A stretch of 62,277 bases of DNA, counting the filler, from Clostridia bacterium (lineage in GTDB: Bacteria > CBDUZB01 > JAGLHV01), in the NCBI GenBank assembly GCA_030637025.1. It is 4 parts of 4 records of this genome, joined end to end, with 100 filler letters (N's around TTAATTAATTAA, not from the genome) between each part and the next. Parts side by side here need not be neighbours in the genome. Positions count along the whole stretch, not along the records: positions 1 to 16,576 come from DAOVVV010000043.1; 3 more parts are not named here. One strand, written 5' to 3'. Below, in pieces: positions 2,004-49,415 of this stretch (position 1 is the stretch's first letter; every line of letters starts with the position of its first letter). Position numbers and translations under genes: made by a program. A model generated the notes under the pieces. It was given only the letters and a program-made list of their open reading frames with translations. It was not told the origin of the DNA and did not search any database.

Positions 2004-2918
2004 ATGAAAATACATTTTTTAACCGCTAAAGAAAAGTTGGAAAAAATCCTTAAAATAACCGGGGTATCCCGTTCCGAGCTTGCACGGCGACTGGAAGTAA
2101 GCTATAAGACTATGTATCGCTGGCTGGATAAAAATGTCGTGCCGCATCCTTCTCAGTCTAATGATATTGAACAATTATTTAAAGAATATGTGGATTTAAG
2201 AAATGTTGTTTTGCAATTGCGTAATAAGCTAAAAAATCCTATCCAGATATTAAAGAATAACAAAGAAATACGGGATAAATTTTTTTTGGAAATGACCTAT
2301 CATTCTAATGCCATAGAAGGAAGTCGTTTGACGGTAAAAGAGACTGAAAGGGCTTTTGAAGGAAAAATGGTGAGGGGGAAGGAATTATTTGAGATTTTAG
2401 AGGCCGTCAATCATAGAAATGCTTTGGAGTTTCTATTGGATAAGATTTGTTGCGACTTTAAAATTGATCAGAATTACATCTTGAAACTGCACGAAATAGT
2501 AATGTATAATTTTGGTAATAAATTACCCGGTAAATACCGGACAGGGTTTGTTAATCTGACTAATACGGAAAAAGTACTTCCTTCGGCAGAGGATGTTCCT
2601 CTCAGGATGGGTAAGTTAGTTAAAAATATTAATAATTATCAAAAAGAACCTATAAAAAAAATTGCCCACGACCATTATGAATTTGAAGTTATTCATCCCT
2701 TTTTTGATGGAAATGGAAGGGTAGGAAGACTGATTATGATTACCCAGCTTTTAAGCAAGGGTTTTGCCCCGGCAATTATTCAGATAGAGGATAGGTATAA
2801 ATATTATATGGCCCTGGGTAAAGCCGATTATGGTGATTACAAAAATATTGTCCAGATGGTTTGTGATTGTATCATAAAAGGATACCATTTTTTTGAAAAG
2901 AATACAAAAAATAGTTAA
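2004..2918 (+). CDS. Fic family protein with N-terminal XRE-type HTH
   Basis: HPFFDGNGRVGR Fic motif; SNAIEG inhibitory motif; N-terminal SRSELARRLEVSYKTMYRW HTH. Confidence 0.92.
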   Translation: MKIHFLTAKEKLEKILKITGVSRSELARRLEVSYKTMYRWLDKNVVPHPSQSNDIEQLFKEYVDLRNVVLQLRNKLKNPIQILKNNKEIRDKFFLEMTYHSNAIEGSRLTVKETERAFEGKMVRGKELFEILEAVNHRNALEFLLDKICCDFKIDQNYILKLHEIVMYNFGNKLPGKYRTGFVNLTNTEKVLPSAEDVPLRMGKLVKNINNYQKEPIKKIAHDHYEFEVIHPFFDGNGRVGRLIMITQLLSKGFAPAIIQIEDRYKYYMALGKADYGDYKNIVQMVCDCIIKGYHFFEKNTKNS

Positions 2919-2976
2919 AAATTATTTGGTTAAAAATTTTTTCAAAAAGAGGACAAAACACTTTAAAAAAAAACAC

Positions 2977-3031
2977 TTGACAAAATTTAGGTTAAGTTGT
3001 ATAATTACAATTGGGAATGAAAACCATTACC
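2977..3031 (+). promoter_or_regulatory. Consensus sigma70 promoter plus Fur box upstream of fur
   Basis: TTGACA 2977-2982, 17 bp, TATAAT 3000-3005; GGGAATGAAAACCATTACC (3013-3031) matches 14/19 of GATAATGATAATCATTATC. Confidence 0.75.
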
Positions 3032-3049
3032 ATTAGGAGATGATTAAAG

Positions 3050-3517
3050 ATGCCCGGACGAAATGGCAAAGGGCCACCATGGTGGCACGGAAAATTTAGA
3101 AGCTGTGGTTATAGGCTAACGATACCCAGAGAAATGATTTTAGATGTTCTAAATAAGGCAGCAAAACATTTAAGTGCCGAGGAGATATATCTGGCGGTGC
3201 AGAAAGTGTATTCGGCTATTGGACTTACTACGATTTATCGCACTCTGGAATTATTGGTACAAATGGGCTTGGTTTTTAAATTTGATTTTGGAGATAAAAG
3301 ATCGCGTTATGAATTAGCGGACGGGCCTAAGGGGATAAGACATCATTATCATTTGGTATGCACAGGTTGTGGTAGAGTAATAGATTATACGGATTTTATT
3401 GATGAAGCCAAAGAACTTCTTTTGCAAACCCAAAAGGGTCTTACTAAAAAATATAATTTTAAGATTACTAATCATCTTATTCAGTTTTACGGGTTGTGTG
3501 AAAAGTGCCAAAAGTAA
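3050..3517 (+). CDS. fur: Fur family transcriptional regulator
   Basis: HLSAEEIY, TTIYRTLELL, HHYHLVCTGCG, C-terminal GLCEKC. Confidence 0.93.
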   Translation: MPGRNGKGPPWWHGKFRSCGYRLTIPREMILDVLNKAAKHLSAEEIYLAVQKVYSAIGLTTIYRTLELLVQMGLVFKFDFGDKRSRYELADGPKGIRHHYHLVCTGCGRVIDYTDFIDEAKELLLQTQKGLTKKYNFKITNHLIQFYGLCEKCQK

Positions 3518-3553
3518 AAACTGATGGAAGTATATATTTTTTTTGCCATAAAT

Positions 3554-3572
3554 GAAAATGATTATCATTAGT
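3554..3572 (+). promoter_or_regulatory. Fur box
   Basis: GAAAATGATTATCATTAGT, 15/19 match to the Fur consensus, upstream of the RBS of the next gene. Confidence 0.75.
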
Positions 3573-3596
3573 AATAAAAGAAAGGAGGTGATTACT

Positions 3597-3977
3597 ATGC
3601 CAGGTGGAGATAGAACAGGTCCTAGTGGATTAGGACCAAAGACCGGTCGAGCAGCCGGCTATTGTGCCGGTTACCCTACGCCAGGCTATATGAATTCTAT
3701 TCCCGGTAGAGGTCGGGGTGGATTTGGCCGTGGTTGGGGTAGAGGTAGAGGACGTGGTGGTGGTCGAGGTTTTGGTTGGCAAGGGTTTGCGTATCCTTAT
3801 GAAAATCCATACTATACAAATGCTTATCCTGCTATGCCATACGCTCCGGAGATTAATCCTCAACAAGAGGCAGCCATGTTAAAAGAACAGTCTAAAGCTT
3901 TGCAAGAAGAAATCAATCTTGTAAACCAGCGCATAAAGGAGTTAGAATCGGCTGTAGCATCAAAAGACAATGAGTAA
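3597..3977 (+). CDS. DUF5320-like Gly/Arg-rich protein with C-terminal coiled coil
   Basis: Start reassigned to ATG 3597 after AAGGAGGTG; MPGGDRTGPSGLGPKTGRAAGYC, GRG repeats, LKEQSKALQEEINLVNQRIKELE. Confidence 0.85.
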   Translation: MPGGDRTGPSGLGPKTGRAAGYCAGYPTPGYMNSIPGRGRGGFGRGWGRGRGRGGGRGFGWQGFAYPYENPYYTNAYPAMPYAPEINPQQEAAMLKEQSKALQEEINLVNQRIKELESAVASKDNE

Positions 3978-3981
3978 GCGA

Positions 3982-4018
3982 TAGGTGGGAATAGAATTAA
4001 AAGTTTTATTCCCACCTA
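3982..4018 (+). terminator. Strong intra-operon hairpin (terminator or mRNA stabiliser)
   Basis: TAGGTGGGAATAGAA / TTTTATTCCCACCTA inverted repeat just after the stop; weak U tract. Confidence 0.55.
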
Positions 4019-4045
4019 AATTTCAGAAGACAAAAGAGGTTAATT

Positions 4046-4432
4046 ATGAAAATAGCAATTTCAACTGATGGAGATTTTGTTTCTTCCCATTTTGGACGTT
4101 GTCCACATTTTACTATTGTAGATATTGATAATAATGAGGTGGTTAAAAAAGAGATAATTGATAATCCGGGTCATCATCCGGGATTTATCCCGCAGTTTTT
4201 ACACCAAAAAGGGGTTGAATGTATTGTTGCAGGTGGAATGGGTGCACACGCTATACAACTTTTTAATGAAACAAAAATAAAGACAATAGTAGGAATAAGT
4301 GGTACAATAAAAGAGACAATAGAAAAGCTTGGAAAAGGAACATTAGCAAGCAAAGAAAGTCTTTGTAGTCCAGGTGCAGGTAAGGACTATGGCGTTGAAA
4401 AAACTGTCTGTGATCATTCTTCGGAAGAATAA
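4046..4432 (+). CDS. NifB/NifX family (FeMo-co biosynthesis-like) protein
   Basis: MKIAI, SSHFGRCPHF, GGMG motifs. Confidence 0.88.
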   Translation: MKIAISTDGDFVSSHFGRCPHFTIVDIDNNEVVKKEIIDNPGHHPGFIPQFLHQKGVECIVAGGMGAHAIQLFNETKIKTIVGISGTIKETIEKLGKGTLASKESLCSPGAGKDYGVEKTVCDHSSEE

Positions 4433-4453
4433 TTAAAAAAGAGAGGTAAAAAG

Positions 4454-4831
4454 ATGAAAATTTGTATAACAGCACAAGGGGATAATTTAGATTCCATGGT
4501 AGATTCCCGTTTCGGAAGATGCCGGTATTTTATTGTAGTAGATAGTGATACTTTAGAATTTGAGGCAATACAAAATCCAAATACAGAAACAACGGGTGGC
4601 GCGGGAATTTTATCCGCTCAACTTATTGCTGAAAAGCAGGTTAAAGCAGTGTTGTCGGGAAATATTGGGCCTAATGCTTTTCAAACTCTTCAAGCGGCAG
4701 GGATAGAAATAATTACCGGGGTTTCGGAAAAAGTAAAAGAAGTAATTGAACAGTATAAACAAGGTAAATTAAAAGCAACACAGGATTCGAGTGTAAAGGC
4801 GAAATTTGGTATGCCGGATCAGAATGTTTAA
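4454..4831 (+). CDS. NifB/NifX family protein
   Basis: DSRFGRCRYF, GGAGI, GNIGPNAF motifs. Confidence 0.88.
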   Translation: MKICITAQGDNLDSMVDSRFGRCRYFIVVDSDTLEFEAIQNPNTETTGGAGILSAQLIAEKQVKAVLSGNIGPNAFQTLQAAGIEIITGVSEKVKEVIEQYKQGKLKATQDSSVKAKFGMPDQNV

Positions 4832-4851
4832 AAATTAAGGAGGTGATTAAA

Positions 4852-5067
4852 ATGCCAGGAGGAGATGGAACAGGCCCCTTTGGTCAGGGTCCCAGAAGAG
4901 GAGGAGGACGAGGTCAGGGAGGAGGATTTGGAGGCGGTCGTGGCGGTATGGGCCCGGGAAGTTTTTGCTTATGTCCAAAGTGTGGAAATAAGGTTGCTCA
5001 TCAGGCAGGGGTTCCCTGTACTACATTAAGTTGTCCGAATTGTGGGACAAAAATGATTAGAAAATAA
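4852..5067 (+). CDS. Small DUF5320-like Gly-rich protein with Cys zinc/iron ribbon
   Basis: ATG 4852 after AAGGAGGTG; MPGGDGTGP, Gly/Arg tract, CLCPKCG...PC...CPNCG. Confidence 0.8.
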   Translation: MPGGDGTGPFGQGPRRGGGRGQGGGFGGGRGGMGPGSFCLCPKCGNKVAHQAGVPCTTLSCPNCGTKMIRK

Positions 5068-5165
5068 ACGCAAAAATTTGCTATAATAATTAAAACAGAT
5101 TTTGCCTTTATAATTTAGTGTTTATATTTTAAATTCTGATTTTTTGAAAGAGAGAAAAAAAATAG

Positions 5166-6011
5166 ATGATTATTTCAGTAGCCAGTGGTAAAGGCGGGAC
5201 AGGAAAGACATTAGTATCTACCAGTCTTGCCCTTGTTATAGAGAATAATGTACAATTATTAGACTGTGATGTAGAGGAACCCAATGCTCATATTTTTATA
5301 AAAGCGGAGATTAAAAATAAATATCCGGCTTTTATTCCTATTCCTCAAATTGATAAAAGCAAATGTGATTTTTGTGGTAAATGTGCTCAAGTGTGTGTTT
5401 ATAATGCTATAGCAGTATTAAAGCAGGATGTTTTGGTTTTTAAAGAGCTTTGCCATGGTTGTGGTTCCTGTAGTTTTCTTTGTCCTCAGAAAGCAATAAG
5501 AGAAGTTAATAAAGAAATCGGAGTAGTTGAGAGTGGTAATTTCAAATCTATAGAATTAGTTCAGGGTAAGCTTAATATTGGTGAGGCAATGTCCCCACCT
5601 TTAATTCGAGAGGTCAAAGAACTTATAAATCCTGAGAAAACGGTAATTATTGATGCCCCTCCCGGAACTTCCTGTCCGGTCATTGTTTCTGTTACAGGAA
5701 CGGATTTTTGCCTATTAGTAACAGAACCGACTCCCTTTGGTCTTAATGATTTGATTTTAAGTGTGGAAGTAATGAGAAAACTTAAGATTCCTTTTGGAGT
5801 AGCCATTAATCGTTGCAATTTGGGAAATGAAGAAACGCAAAAGTATTGTGAGAAAGAAAATATTCCTATATTGATAAATATTCCTTTTAAAAAAGAAATA
5901 GCGGTTGCTTATTCTAAAGGAATACCCCTGGTGGAAGCTTTTCCCGAATATAAAAGAAATTTTCAGGATTTGTTGAATAAGGTAATATCAATAATAAAAA
6001 GTAAGCAATGA
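5166..6011 (+). CDS. MinD-superfamily P-loop ATPase with inserted 2x[4Fe-4S] ferredoxin domain
   Basis: SGKGGTGKT, DCDVEEPN, CDFCGKCAQVC and CHGCGSCSFLC, DAPPGTSCP. Confidence 0.92.
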   Translation: MIISVASGKGGTGKTLVSTSLALVIENNVQLLDCDVEEPNAHIFIKAEIKNKYPAFIPIPQIDKSKCDFCGKCAQVCVYNAIAVLKQDVLVFKELCHGCGSCSFLCPQKAIREVNKEIGVVESGNFKSIELVQGKLNIGEAMSPPLIREVKELINPEKTVIIDAPPGTSCPVIVSVTGTDFCLLVTEPTPFGLNDLILSVEVMRKLKIPFGVAINRCNLGNEETQKYCEKENIPILINIPFKKEIAVAYSKGIPLVEAFPEYKRNFQDLLNKVISIIKSKQ

Positions 6012-6035
6012 AATTAAATTATACAAGGATTAAAG

Positions 6036-6923
6036 ATGAAACAAATTGTAATAATCAGTGGTAAAGGTGGAACAGGAAAAACAGTAGTAACCGGGGCTTT
6101 TGCTTCTTTAGCTAAAAATAAAATAATGGCAGACTGCGATGTTGATGCTGCCGATTTACATTTATTGCTTAAACCGGAAATAAAAAAAAGGCATGAATTT
6201 AAAAGCGGGGTGACTGCATTTATTGACAAAGAGCTTTGTAGTCAGTGTGGACAATGTGTTCAGGTGTGCCGTTTTTCTGCCGTAGAAATTGGAAAAAACG
6301 TTTCCGGAGAAAAAGAATTTACAATAGATCCTATTGCTTGTGAAGGATGTGCTTTCTGTAGCTTCGTATGTCCTACCGAAGCGATAAAAATGGAAGAGAA
6401 TATATCCGGAGAATGGTATATTTCGGATACCAGATTCGGCCCTTTTGTTCATGCCAGGCTGGGAATAGCTTCGGAAAATTCAGGTAAATTAGTTGCTCTG
6501 GTAAAACAAAAAGCAAAGGAATTAGCTGAAAAACAGAATTGTGATTGGATTATTATAGATGGTGCGCCCGGGATAGGTTGTCCGGTGATTGCTTCGTTAT
6601 CCGGCATAGATTATGCGTTAGTTATAACTGAGCCGACATTATCCGGTCTTCACGATGCAGACAGGGTGATTCAGGTAGTAAAGCATTTTAAAATCTCGGT
6701 TAGATTAATCATAAACAAATACGATTTAAATAAAGAGATGACTGAAAAAATAGAAGAATATTGTAAAAACAATAATATCCCTCTTGTTGGTAAAATCAGT
6801 TTTGATGAATCCATGGTAAAAGCGATTATAGAAGGTAAAACAATTATAGAATATGGATATGGTAAAGCCAGAGAGGAGATTACTGCAATTTGGGATACAT
6901 TACAAAAAGAGGAACAAAAGTAA
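6036..6923 (+). CDS. MinD-superfamily P-loop ATPase with inserted ferredoxin domain (paralogue)
   Basis: SGKGGTGKT, DCDVDAADL, CSQCGQCVQVC and CEGCAFCSFVCP, DGAPGIGCP. Confidence 0.92.
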   Translation: MKQIVIISGKGGTGKTVVTGAFASLAKNKIMADCDVDAADLHLLLKPEIKKRHEFKSGVTAFIDKELCSQCGQCVQVCRFSAVEIGKNVSGEKEFTIDPIACEGCAFCSFVCPTEAIKMEENISGEWYISDTRFGPFVHARLGIASENSGKLVALVKQKAKELAEKQNCDWIIIDGAPGIGCPVIASLSGIDYALVITEPTLSGLHDADRVIQVVKHFKISVRLIINKYDLNKEMTEKIEEYCKNNNIPLVGKISFDESMVKAIIEGKTIIEYGYGKAREEITAIWDTLQKEEQK

Positions 6924-7103
6924 TAAGGTAATAAAGAACCAACAGTATCTTCCCATTACGCAAAAAAAATACACTTCGTTTTGTTTCCAGCCAAAACTGA
7001 TCTTTAAAAATGCATGTTTGTTTTCTAAGTATAATTAAAATTTTTAAAGAAGGGAATATATATTTACGAGACAGGAATTTTATTAAAAAGGAAGGGAAAA
7101 ATT

Positions 7104-7304
7104 ATGCCTATTTATACCTATTTTTGCAAAGATTGTGGTGAAAAATTTGATTTGTTATTAGGTGTTACTTCTGAGAAAGTGGAACTCAAATGCAAAAAGT
7201 GCGGAAGGAAGAATATTAAGAAAATATTAAGTTCATTCAATGTGGGAAATTCCGGTTCCTCCGGACCAAGCTGTCCTTCAGGAACATGTCCTACAGGGTT
7301 TTAA
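7104..7304 (+). CDS. FmdB family zinc-ribbon protein
   Basis: MPIYTYFCKDCG...CKKCG, C-terminal SCPSGTCP. Confidence 0.88.
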   Translation: MPIYTYFCKDCGEKFDLLLGVTSEKVELKCKKCGRKNIKKILSSFNVGNSGSSGPSCPSGTCPTGF

Positions 7305-7334
7305 GTAAAATCTTAGTATAGATTCCTGTTTTTC

Positions 7335-7441
7335 AGATTATGTTATAACTCATATTTTCATATGGTAGCCGCAGGCTTTAGCCTGCGTTATCGCCGGAGC
7401 TTTTCCGCAGGCTAAAGCCTGCGACTACTATGACACAGTTT
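7335..7441 (+). repeat. MITE-like element containing a GTAG-type REP doublet (copy 1)
   Basis: GTAGCCGCAGGCTTTAGCCTGCG (7365-7387) and inverted CGCAGGCTAAAGCCTGCGACTAC (7406-7428); ends GATTATGTTATA / TATGACACAGT; related copy at 10442. Confidence 0.75.
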
Positions 7442-7515
7442 GTTCTCAGGAATGGCAATAAAGGTAAAAAGGCTATTTTGCAGAACTATTTTTAATAAAG
7501 CAATAGGAGGTAAAG

Positions 7516-7968
7516 ATGAGTGAAGTAAGACAAAGAAGCAAAAAATTTATCTATAGAACAAAAATTAAGTGGGACAAAGCGAAGAAGGGATTTCTTTCTT
7601 CTTCCGGTAAACCGGATATAGAGACAGCCACACCCCCTGAATTTCGGGGACACGCAGGTATTTGGACACCGGAAGACTTTTTTGTTGCCGCAGTTAATTC
7701 CTGTATTATGACTACTTTTTTATATTACGCTGAGAGGGAAAGTATAGAGTTTGTAAGTTATGAAAGTGAGGCTGAAGGGATTTTGGAAAGAGTCGAAAAT
7801 CAATTAATGTTTTCCCTTATTACGGTACGACCCAGGATTGTAATCGCTTTAAGCGATCAGAAGGAAAAAGTAGAAAAACTGATGAAAAGCTCTGAGAGGG
7901 GTTGTCTTATATCCCATTCCATAAAGTCTAAAGTTGAAGTGATAGTTGAAATAACTATTAGAAAATAA
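7516..7968 (+). CDS. OsmC family protein
   Basis: TPPEFRG, WTPEDFFVAAVNSC, CLISHSIK. Confidence 0.88.
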   Translation: MSEVRQRSKKFIYRTKIKWDKAKKGFLSSSGKPDIETATPPEFRGHAGIWTPEDFFVAAVNSCIMTTFLYYAERESIEFVSYESEAEGILERVENQLMFSLITVRPRIVIALSDQKEKVEKLMKSSERGCLISHSIKSKVEVIVEITIRK

Positions 7969-16576: not shown

Positions 16577-16676
16577 NNNNNNNNNNNNNNNNNNNNNNNN
16601 NNNNNNNNNNNNNNNNNNNNTTAATTAATTAANNNNNNNNNNNNNNNNNNNNNNNNNNNNNNNNNNNNNNNNNNNN
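16577..16676. other. Artificial contig spacer
   Basis: N run with central TTAATTAATTAA six-frame stop linker. Confidence 0.97.
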
Positions 16677-35238: not shown

Positions 35239-35338
35239 NNNNNNNNNNNNNNNNNNNNNNNNNNNNNNNNNNNNNNNNNNNNTTAATTAATTAANNNNNN
35301 NNNNNNNNNNNNNNNNNNNNNNNNNNNNNNNNNNNNNN
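35239..35338. other. Artificial contig spacer
   Basis: N run with TTAATTAATTAA. Confidence 0.97.
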
Positions 35339-49315: not shown

Positions 49316-49415
49316 NNNNNNNNNNNNNNNNNNNNNNNNNNNNNNNNNNNNNNNNNNNNTTAATTAATTAANNNNNNNNNNNNNNNNNNNNNNNNNNNNN
49401 NNNNNNNNNNNNNNN
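49316..49415. other. Artificial contig spacer
   Basis: N run with TTAATTAATTAA. Confidence 0.97.

Follow-up and report, generated by a model that had tools for sequence, protein, structure and literature searches.

Three proteins encoded in one operon of a Clostridia bacterium, a Fur-family regulator (3050), a DUF5320 protein (3597) and a 4-Cys ribbon protein (4852), begin with the identical nine-residue pattern MPG-x-[DN]-x-x-GP. The shared peptide (in the following termed the head) corresponds to the known head of Pfam DUF5320 (PF17253), of which it makes up the first nine profile positions. Its conservation extends over many bacterial phyla, and it is described best as a modular, N-terminus-locked short linear motif within a predicted disordered segment. 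The window, i.e. the whole stretch of DNA that was analyzed (62,277 nucleotides, filler included), contains the following elements of the operon:

2977..3005, plus strand: sigma-70-type promoter TTGACA-17-TATAAT, the sole 12/12 consensus match in 2850-7600
3012..3032, plus strand: Fur-box-like inverted repeat, predicted operator, at a conserved position past the -10 box and before the ribosome-binding site
3050..3517, plus strand: Fur-family regulator, 155 aa, with N-terminal head and WWHGxFRxCGYR helix (PF01475; invariant CxxC pairs and His cluster; AF2 mean pLDDT 80)
3050..3076, plus strand: Fur head peptide MPGRNGKGP, from ATG 3050 (sequence and homologues; residues 1-7 with pLDDT <50, followed by a helix at 10-18)
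3597..3977, plus strand: DUF5320 protein, 126 aa, with head, Arg/Gly/aromatic-rich disordered region and C-terminal coiled-coil helix (PF17253)
3597..3623, plus strand: DUF5320 head peptide MPGGDRTGP, from ATG 3597 (strict motif in 66 of 68 orthologues)
3982..4018, plus strand: 17-bp stem-loop downstream of the DUF5320 gene and ahead of the first NifX-like gene (RNA fold -22.5 kcal/mol)
4046..4432, plus strand: NifX-like (Nitro_FeMo-Co) carrier protein 1 (PF02579, E 9.4e-23)
4454..4831, plus strand: NifX-like carrier protein 2 (PF02579, E 1e-25), of the type fused to DUF5320 bodies elsewhere
4852..5067, plus strand: small protein, 71 aa, with head, Gly/Arg-rich linker and 4-Cys ribbon of the Orp5 type (homologues, weak domain matches)
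4852..4878, plus strand: ribbon-protein head peptide MPGGDGTGP, from ATG 4852 (strict motif in 26 of 48 orthologues)
5166..6011, plus strand: MinD/ParA-type ATPase copy 1 with an inserted 2x[4Fe-4S] ferredoxin domain, Orp3/4-like (CbiA/ParA and Fer4)
6036..6923, plus strand: MinD/ParA-type ATPase copy 2 with an inserted ferredoxin domain (profile match, conserved gene order)

The three N-termini had been noticed in the sequence-only reading, which took them for a shared tag, and all of them were confirmed at the start codons listed above. The tag itself was borne out as a selected, non-chance peptide. Throughout the whole genome (2,361,871 bases), ^MP..[DN]..GP was found at 3 of 42,136 candidate starts, defined as ATG, GTG or TTG with at least 40 codons downstream, and all three lie inside this operon; a random distribution over the proteome, which would speak against a tag, was not observed. 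If P..[DN]..GP was sought anywhere in open frames of at least 60 aa (1,169,410 aa), six occurrences were obtained, the three heads and three internal matches elsewhere. When the back-translated pattern M-P-x-x-[DN]-G-T-G-P was sought in a broad sample of 151 bacterial genomes, it occurred 39 times, spread over 30 of them; its reversed form, used as a control, did not occur. Among 80 related loci, P..[DN]G[TMSK]GP stood directly after a start codon in 100 of 100 occurrences. The same loci yielded 140 strict motif starts out of 17,571 candidates, belonging to DUF5320 proteins (72), Fur (33), ribbon proteins (26) and nine unclassified open reading frames, which are all located in or adjoining the operon and seven of which look DUF5320-like by eye. 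Mechanically called reading frames of the 3597 and 4852 proteins open further upstream (ATG at 3552 and GTG at 4843, respectively); GGAGGTGA boxes are situated 6-7 nt ahead of 3597 and 4852, and the orthologues of both proteins begin at the MP codon.

For the fur gene, ATG 3050 is the first start codon past an in-frame TGA (3041-3043) and is preceded by AGGAG at 3035-3039. A true start further downstream, by which the sequence-only reading would have been refuted, was ruled out, as a stop codon closes the frame two codons before ATG 3050, conservation covers residues 2-24, and no further methionine occurs before residue 29, which lies within the DNA-binding domain. An upstream start was rejected as well: the peptide 'LIMETIINKE' seen in open frames of some loci is the translated Fur box and ribosome-binding site. 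The product matched PF01475 with residues 20-147 (E 1e-30, 106.8 bits, cut-off 23.1), and its AF2 model displays helices and strands as expected for the Fur family. C104, C107, C150, C153, H99 and H101 are invariant in 82 aligned sequences, H98 and H100 are conserved to at least 90%. None of the named equivalogs (Fur, PerR, Zur, Irr) could be assigned; the best NCBIfam model, Bacillus-type Fur, scored 118.9 bits against a cut-off of 220 bits, and all other NCBIfam Fur-family models likewise remained under their cut-offs. The protein thus shares with canonical Fur, PerR and Zur the Fur fold, two CxxC pairs, the His cluster and a candidate Fur-box operator, and its gene occupies the position where autoregulation is expected, but it adds the nine-residue disordered head and a first helix of the type WWHGxFRGCGYR. 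That canonical Fur possesses no such extension, as previously assumed, agrees with the alignments of Fur-family sequences in the PDB, since 26 of 26 matched entries align from query residue 12 or later. A second, ordinary Fur without the motif is encoded elsewhere in the genome (G000:C34:63513-63866).

An absence of the motif from orthologous Furs, which would also have refuted the sequence-only reading, was not observed. Of the 120 top database homologues (identity 72-99%), 76 begin with the strict form ^MP..[DN]..GP. The 80 loci, each representing one species, gave 82 Fur matches, two of which are second Furs; 33 contain the strict motif and 41 the looser M-P-x5-G-P. In many other orthologues the head is degenerate (e.g. 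MRNRNCSGS, MPRCRRMGP). Among the 82 aligned Furs, P2 is retained in 62, [DN]5 in 49, G8 in 70 and P9 in 59, at a mean column identity of 76%, and Arg or Lys is frequent at positions 3-4. The most strongly conserved N-terminal parts are W11/W12 and G20/R22/T24 rather than the head. For Pro2, Gly8 and Pro9, all four codons are in use across the orthologues, which argues for selection on the protein level, and because the wobble positions are free, the peptide has been under selection over a long period. Since the head is less well conserved in Fur and the ribbon protein than in DUF5320 proteins and is degenerate in many orthologues, it is not strictly required. The head-bearing Furs are a widespread subfamily.

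With 88 bits (E 1e-24; Pfam gathering threshold 27), the 3597 protein qualifies fully as a DUF5320 protein (PF17253). The AF2 model showed no secondary structure for residues 1-87, with pLDDT means of 43-50 in ten-residue blocks up to residue 80, and a helix at 88-124. DUF5320 heads mostly read G-G-D-G/R-T, and Cys-23 is invariant in 57 sequences. The family was present in 50 of the 151 bacterial genomes and in the controls Thermotoga maritima and Methanosarcina acetivorans. By contrast, the ribbon protein stays below the Pfam cut-off, matching PF17253 with residues 1-37 (E 0.011, 17.3 bits, gathering threshold 27), and Fur is not scored at all, a match at E 0.1 being absent. Zinc-ribbon models also gave weak matches to the 4852 protein. 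A profile-profile comparison of Fur and DUF5320 aligned eight columns (E 0.016, probability 2.8%), and because only eight columns align, common descent of the two heads is not demonstrable. The head is the sole element that the ribbon protein, Fur and the DUF5320 protein have in common. When the DUF5320 profile was run against the PDB, only chance matches to coiled coils were obtained (best E 0.003); the ESM Atlas search returned only DUF5320 clusters, and in the literature searched no discussion of the family (PF17253, IPR035205) or of the motif was found.

In other genomes the head was found on at least six protein architectures, which occur in ORP/IssA-like iron-sulfur operons. Apart from the proteins described above, it precedes a PF04060 FeS domain (L123), a 2x[4Fe-4S] ferredoxin (L124) and a hydrophobic helix (L092 and, by eye, L046). 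Gene order of the operon is kept in the 80 loci. The supposition that the regulator is coupled to its products holds at the genetic level, the operon continuing after fur in 65 of the 67 loci with room for it. Concerning its control, TTGACAAA was found in 43 of 77 orthologous upstream regions, and in several phyla the orthologous loci have a box of the TGATAATGGAAACCATTATCA type at the equivalent place past the -10 box. With four mismatches to this consensus, the box of the window is the best match genome-wide; every other match has five. A dedicated Fur paralogue heads the operon; the promoter in front of it comes with a conserved Fur box. Fur may repress the operon via this predicted box.

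The arrangement resembles the ORP/orp cluster of Desulfovibrio vulgaris (Orp3, Orp4, Orp5, Orp8, Orp9/MrpORP). The window operon has precisely the parts given for the ORP complex in the passages of PMC6345978 drawn on here: a pair of MinD-type ATPases, each containing two ferredoxin motifs, together with NifX-like 'Di-Nase' proteins and a small Cys protein. Furthermore, homologues of the ribbon protein (E 1e-12 to 7e-18) are encoded within or next to ATPase genes of clusters that encode MrpORP and a PAS/sigma-54 activator. On the other hand, the Orp5-type proteins of such sigma-54 orp clusters often do without the head (L154, L156), and the window operon lacks MrpORP, an Mrp/NBP35-NifX-like fusion; the model NF041136 matched NifX-like or P-loop parts, at scores far below 450 bits. 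Its control by a sigma-70-type promoter, Fur box and Fur differs from that by sigma-54 and OrpR, and the five ORP-complex proteins that those passages of PMC6345978 name do not include a DUF5320 protein. The DVU gene numbers were not found in the main texts of PMC8359166 and PMC3897727. A further similar system is IssA of Pyrococcus furiosus, which according to the relevant parts of PMC5524996 consists of a NifX-like (IPR003731) domain and an unstructured cationic/aromatic/Gly tail proposed to bind anionic thioferrate. The middle region of the DUF5320 protein has a tail-like composition, but in the window this part belongs to a protein of its own that also carries the head and a coiled coil. 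In five genomes (L163-L167) a DUF5320 body is fused behind a NifX2-like domain, and all five fusions lack the head. They suggest that operons of this kind are split versions of IssA-type iron-sulfur storage.

It is conceivable that the head is a docking motif, dependent on a free N-terminus, for a partner that the operon products share, a reading to which somewhat less than an even chance is given. Proline at position 2 permits removal of the initiator methionine. Pro-1 would thereby be exposed, and the head could serve as a docking handle for one common operon-encoded partner, most likely a NifX-like carrier domain. It would bring cationic Gly/Arg/aromatic tails or Fe-S domains to a carrier-held cluster, comparable to IssA, which has such a tail in cis. 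The comparative evidence leans towards the NifX-like carriers rather than the MinD-type ATPases. Of the 50 genomes with DUF5320, 49 contain a NifX-like gene and 44 the ATPase. An ATPase match at E 1e-10 was absent from four genomes that are 99-100% complete (G038, G148, G017, G058), and three of these (G038, G148, G017; 100% complete) show a PF17253 match from profile position 1. One genome (G147, 97% complete) encodes a head protein without a NifX-like match at E 1e-8. The Rosetta-stone fusions L163-L167 join the DUF5320 body to NifX2; that the head itself docks in trans is an inference. A head fused ahead of a NifX-like domain was seen in one genome (L162); this fusion carries little weight because only itself and one relative with 81% identity, two sequences in a collection of 5.8 billion proteins, were found. 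Fur might compete for the partner of the head or be titrated by it, and operon expression would then reflect the condition of the machinery as well as metal status. In an extended form of this proposal, the metalloregulator would be governed by partner switching with its own regulon: the free Pro-Gly N-terminus would act as a plug for NifX-like (IssA-type) carriers, the DUF5320, Orp5-type ribbon and other head-bearing Fe-S proteins would load or wrap the carried metal-sulfide by means of it, and Fur, bearing the same plug, would be titrated by free or occupied carriers, so that transcription would read the filling of the iron-sulfur store together with free metal. As a whole, this scheme is rather doubtful. 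If Fur were titrated via its head, this would be a new wiring of a Fur-family regulator to the machinery under its control. A position-locked head on several Fe-S proteins and on their own regulator also offers a cheap experimental handle on the hub of the system, and clusters of ORP, NifX-like and MinD-ferredoxin genes with DUF5320 are widespread in anaerobes.

Binding to the MinD/ParA-type Fe-S ATPases instead is unlikely, even though several observations fit. In this case the head would occupy the interface of the ATP dimer, stimulating the ATPase or reading it out, and Fur would be sequestered in the way known for FleN, a MinD-like anti-activator that holds the regulator FleQ. Both ATPases have the deviant Walker A motif SGKGGTGKT, and their profile matched archaeal MinD and FleN structures, albeit partially; one PDB match is titled 'antiactivator FleN'. 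For ParB, MinE, McdB and PomX, which are otherwise unrelated, a short disordered, charged N-terminal peptide is the common handle on ParA/MinD ATPases, and partners are stated to act generally in this manner in the relevant part of PMC10241942. The window operon combines KGGTGKT ATPases with proteins whose N-termini, head included, are predicted to be disordered. DUF5320 is missing from only 4 of 48 ATPase genomes and, as mentioned, accompanied by the ATPase in 44 of 50; in five loci (L116, L125, L132, L134, L143) it adjoins ATPases, and NifX-like genes are absent from the surrounding 1.5 kb. However, the head, mostly G-G-D-G/R-T in DUF5320 proteins, lacks a marked basic character, and the three complete genomes named above possess head-type proteins and no such ATPase. 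A weak search for head-ATPase fusions found none, the two matches among 27 long candidates being DUF5320 only. More improbable is a direct chemical role, in which the Pro-1 amine, Asp/Asn-5, Thr-7 and a nearby cysteine (Cys-23 in DUF5320, Cys-19 in Fur) would bind metal-sulfur species and provide Fur with a second sensory site. The strict N-terminal position (100/100) suits the requirement of a free alpha-amine, Cys-19 occurs in 68 of 82 Furs beside the invariant Cys-23, the partners C-terminal to the head are all metal or cluster binders or cationic tails, and in L162 the head stands in cis to a cluster-binding NifX-like domain. Yet a peptide rich in Gly and Pro that has one acidic residue does not correspond to a known metal site, position 5 alternates between Asp and Asn, and the ribbon and ferredoxin versions have no cysteine near the head.

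It is still less probable that the head of Fur has no shared partner and that the likeness is historical, the peptide being a recombination relic of the 5' end of the neighboring DUF5320 gene or a flexible DNA-contacting arm. In favor of this, fur immediately precedes the DUF5320 gene, all three genes have similar translation-initiation regions, and Arg/Lys is frequent at positions 3-4 of the Fur heads; in many Fur orthologues, moreover, the head has decayed but the helix behind it has stayed fixed. This reading is difficult to reconcile with a per-position conservation of 60-85% in many phyla, roughly the level of the folded protein (76%) in spite of the disorder, and with the free wobble positions. 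That the conserved element acts at the level of RNA or translation, or marks N-terminal processing or degradation, appears very improbable. Start regions of the form AGGAG(G/A)TGATTA-n-ATGCC are common to all three genes, and Pro2 is compatible with Met removal, but the use of all four codons at Pro2, Gly8 and Pro9 of Fur argues against an RNA signal. Moreover, the Fur upstream regions have no common consensus apart from the ribosome-binding site, and no protease or modifying enzyme was found as a constant neighbor across the compared loci.

The stem-loop behind the DUF5320 gene is not followed by a T-run; its folding energy corresponds to a z of -7.1, and none of 200 shuffled sequences folded as well.

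The operon occupies window positions 2977-6923, a single co-directional gene row on contig C32 (1-16576, the only part of the window relevant to this finding) of a genome of 2.36 Mb with 33.5% G+C. It comprises the following elements:

2977-3005: perfect sigma-70 promoter, TTGACA-17-TATAAT, the sole 12/12 match within 2850-7600
3012-3032: Fur-box-like palindrome, the genome's best match to the box conserved in orthologous loci
3050-3517: Fur-family regulator
3597-3977: DUF5320 protein (PF17253)
4046-4432: NifX-like 'Nitro_FeMo-Co' protein 1
4454-4831: NifX-like 'Nitro_FeMo-Co' protein 2 (NifX2)
4852-5067: ribbon protein of 71 residues, Gly/Arg-rich linker and 4-Cys ribbon
5166-6011: MinD/ParA-type ATPase 1 with inserted 2x[4Fe-4S] ferredoxin domain
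6036-6923: MinD/ParA-type ATPase 2 with inserted 2x[4Fe-4S] ferredoxin domain

Three of these proteins, Fur, the DUF5320 protein and the ribbon protein, start with a similar nine-residue peptide, the head (MPGRNGKGP, MPGGDRTGP and MPGGDGTGP, respectively). This likeness, already noticed in the sequence-only reading, was confirmed and lies far beyond chance, as a search across the genome limited the strict motif ^MP..[DN]..GP to the three starts of the operon (3/42,136 candidate starts). Inside open frames of the same genome, the head string occurred three further times in 1.17 million residues. The start of fur is secure because an in-frame TGA lies two codons and AGGAG ten bases upstream, and the next methionine (residue 29) is within the DNA-binding domain. 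For the genes at 3597 and 4852, the longest open reading frames start further upstream than the MP codons; GGAGGTGA boxes are located 6-7 nt ahead of these codons, at which the orthologues start as well.

With 88 bits, the 3597 protein belongs fully to PF17253. The match of the ribbon protein is below threshold and confined to the first 37 positions, and Fur gave none. Since only eight columns were aligned when Fur and DUF5320 profiles were compared (E 0.016), common ancestry of their heads cannot be shown. Using the Fur protein, 80 species-representative loci were retrieved, labelled Omnitrophota, Nitrospirota/Thermodesulfovibrionales, Atribacterota, Elusimicrobiota, WOR-3, Latescibacterota, Calditrichota and others, in which the gene order is kept.

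Strict motif at protein starts in the 80 loci
DUF5320: 66/68
Ribbon protein: 26/48
Fur (including two second Furs): 33/82; looser form M-P-x5-G-P, 41/82
NifX-like proteins: 0/125
ATPases: 0/112

Among 17,571 candidate starts (741,880 bases), 140 carried the strict motif: 72 DUF5320, 33 Fur, 26 ribbon and nine unclassified, the latter judged by eye to be seven DUF5320-like and two small proteins with a terminal hydrophobic helix. The back-translated head pattern yielded 39 matches in 30 genomes of a broad bacterial sample (151 genomes), and the reversed control pattern none. The matching proteins were of the DUF5320 or ribbon type and adjoined NifX-like and ATPase genes. In two more architectures, the head is joined to a PF04060 FeS domain or to a 2x[4Fe-4S] ferredoxin.

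In the 80 loci, P..[DN]G[TMSK]GP occurs 100 times, in every case directly behind a start codon; the head is position-locked to the N-terminus. It is selected as protein, since Pro2, Gly8 and Pro9 of Fur each use all four codons (Pro2: CCA/CCC/CCT/CCG, 16/8/8/8). According to structure models, the head is predicted to be disordered. In Fur (mean pLDDT 80), residues 1-7 scored below 50, ahead of a helix (10-18) located where Fur has its first helix. The DUF5320 model lacks predicted secondary structure in residues 1-87 (block-mean pLDDT 43-50 up to residue 80), its sole predicted helix being C-terminal (88-124). Conserved within disorder and fixed at the N-terminus, the motif looks like a short linear motif for binding or modification. 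Proline at position 2 leads to the expectation that the initiator methionine is removed, and a free Pro-Gly end would therefore remain on the head proteins. The earlier proposal of a shared functional tag is thus supported in kind (selected, modular, N-terminus-locked, disordered), with a putative function.

The head also recurs in orthologous Furs. The Fur search gave 1,784 homologues among 1,820 candidates; the best 120 of these are 72-99% identical along their full length, 76 starting with the strict motif, 86 with M-P-x5-G-P, and 114 having the signature W-W-H-G-[RK]-F-R-G-C-G-Y-R behind the head. In the 82 operon-linked Furs, P2 was present in 62, [DN]5 in 49, G8 in 70, P9 in 59, W11 in 80 and W12 in 76, while G20, R22 and T24 were invariant. 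Judged by these counts against a mean column identity of 76%, the head is kept about as well as the whole protein, and less well than the helix behind it. Several Fur lineages have degenerate heads, and more distant cluster-linked Furs retain only parts of it. None of the 26 matched solved Fur-family sequences covers residues 1-11, since their alignments begin no earlier than residue 12.

Cluster genes begin at most 1.5 kb downstream of fur in 65 of the 67 loci with room; the two others are L034, in which fur comes after a CGGC-domain gene, and L082, in which phmmer overlooked a DUF5320-like gene. This linkage, the conserved palindrome, the genome-best box at 3012-3032 and the presence of a separate ordinary Fur make the regulator look dedicated to this operon. 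Promoter, palindrome and ribosome-binding site follow each other in this order (2977-3039), and in most orthologous loci the palindrome likewise lies behind the -10 box and ahead of the ribosome-binding site. As the frame of fur is open across the promoter-to-RBS stretch in some loci, where it translates as 'LIMETIINKE', gene callers may extend Fur upstream (e.g. the database protein P0097).

The inventory of parts is the same as for the Desulfovibrio ORP (orange-protein) complex outlined in PMC6345978: two ferredoxin-type ATPases (Orp3/4), the NifX-like orange protein Orp8, the small Fe-S protein Orp5 and MrpORP. Unlike ORP clusters, however, the operon has no MrpORP and possesses a sigma-70 promoter with Fur. 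Desulfobacterota clusters with true MrpORP and a PAS/sigma-54 activator contain ribbon-protein homologues in or beside the ATPase genes; the head is present in L158, degenerate in L156 and L161, and lacking in L154. In DUF5320, the Arg/Gly/aromatic-rich middle is similar to the C-terminal tail of IssA, the iron-sulfur storage protein of Pyrococcus furiosus; in the outline given in PMC5524996, this tail is proposed to wrap anionic thioferrate that forms on the NifX-like domain of IssA. Natural NifX2-DUF5320 fusions in five genomes (L163-L167; G110, G040, G056, G021, G005) have the same layout, a NifX2-like domain followed by the DUF5320 body (Gly/Met/Arg-rich stretch and coiled coil), which suggests that the operons are iron-sulfur storage or handling systems in split form. 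The searched library of non-subscription literature contained no description of the head motif, DUF5320 function or this Fur subfamily.

All five of these fusions lack the head. Its loss upon fusion in cis is as expected if the head attaches in trans, which would be its job. Other fusions include L168 (ferredoxin, then headless DUF5320 body; one genome) and L155:12818-13381 (-), a 188-residue NifX-like (PF02579) and Orp5-type 4-Cys ribbon protein within a cluster that also has MrpORP and a sigma-54 activator. The head itself precedes a NifX-like domain in L162 (one genome), an arrangement found in only two proteins of the whole collection. Through the fusions, DUF5320 body and ribbon are both linked to the NifX-like domain. 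Tentatively, and with somewhat less than even confidence, we propose that the head, needing a free N-terminus, docks on a common operon partner, that this partner would be the NifX-like carrier rather than the ATPases, and that the Fur paralogue borrows the head, which would couple regulation to the machinery.

Docking on the MinD/ParA-type ATPases is a live but less favoured alternative. Disordered N-terminal peptides of diverse partners do address such ATPases, as outlined in PMC10241942. Among the 151 genomes, 50 have DUF5320, 48 the ATPase (E 1e-40) and 75 a NifX-like domain (E 1e-8); 44 of the 50 DUF5320 genomes also possess the ATPase and 49 a NifX-like gene. Of the six ATPase-less DUF5320 genomes, four that are 99-100% complete (G038, G148, G017, G058) did not match the ATPase profile even at E 1e-10, which speaks against the ATPases as partner; in three of the four, PF17253 matches start at profile position 1. 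Another of the six, G147, matched neither ATPase (E 1e-40) nor NifX-like domain (E 1e-8).

A strong 17-bp stem-loop (3982-4018; -22.5 kcal/mol, z -7.1) without a T-run 3' of the stem separates the DUF5320 gene from NifX-like gene 1. Such an element may serve in mRNA processing, stability or attenuation and set fur and DUF5320 at levels different from those of the downstream genes. The source genome contains a second, headless Fur paralogue (C34:63513-63866) and two more NifX-like genes outside the operon (C21:6894-7163 and C4:55805-56068). In the Nitrospirota-labelled loci L034, L040, L052 and L060, coding regions with similar 3' ends replace promoter and Fur box upstream of fur; in L034 the upstream gene is that of the CGGC-domain protein (PF08821), and no cluster genes follow fur. 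The contigs of the window are separated by N runs at 16577-16676, 35239-35338 and 49316-49415 (264 N total). Immediately upstream of the operon promoter, Pfam identified a protein with a Fic/DOC domain and an N-terminal helix-turn-helix (2004-2918), and a Fic homologue likewise lies upstream of fur in L042. Downstream of the operon, an FmdB-type CxxC zinc-ribbon protein (7104-7304) and an OsmC-like protein (7516-7968) are encoded; FmdB-type ribbons recur within or just after the cluster in related loci (nine matches; also L115, L117, L156, L158 and L161).
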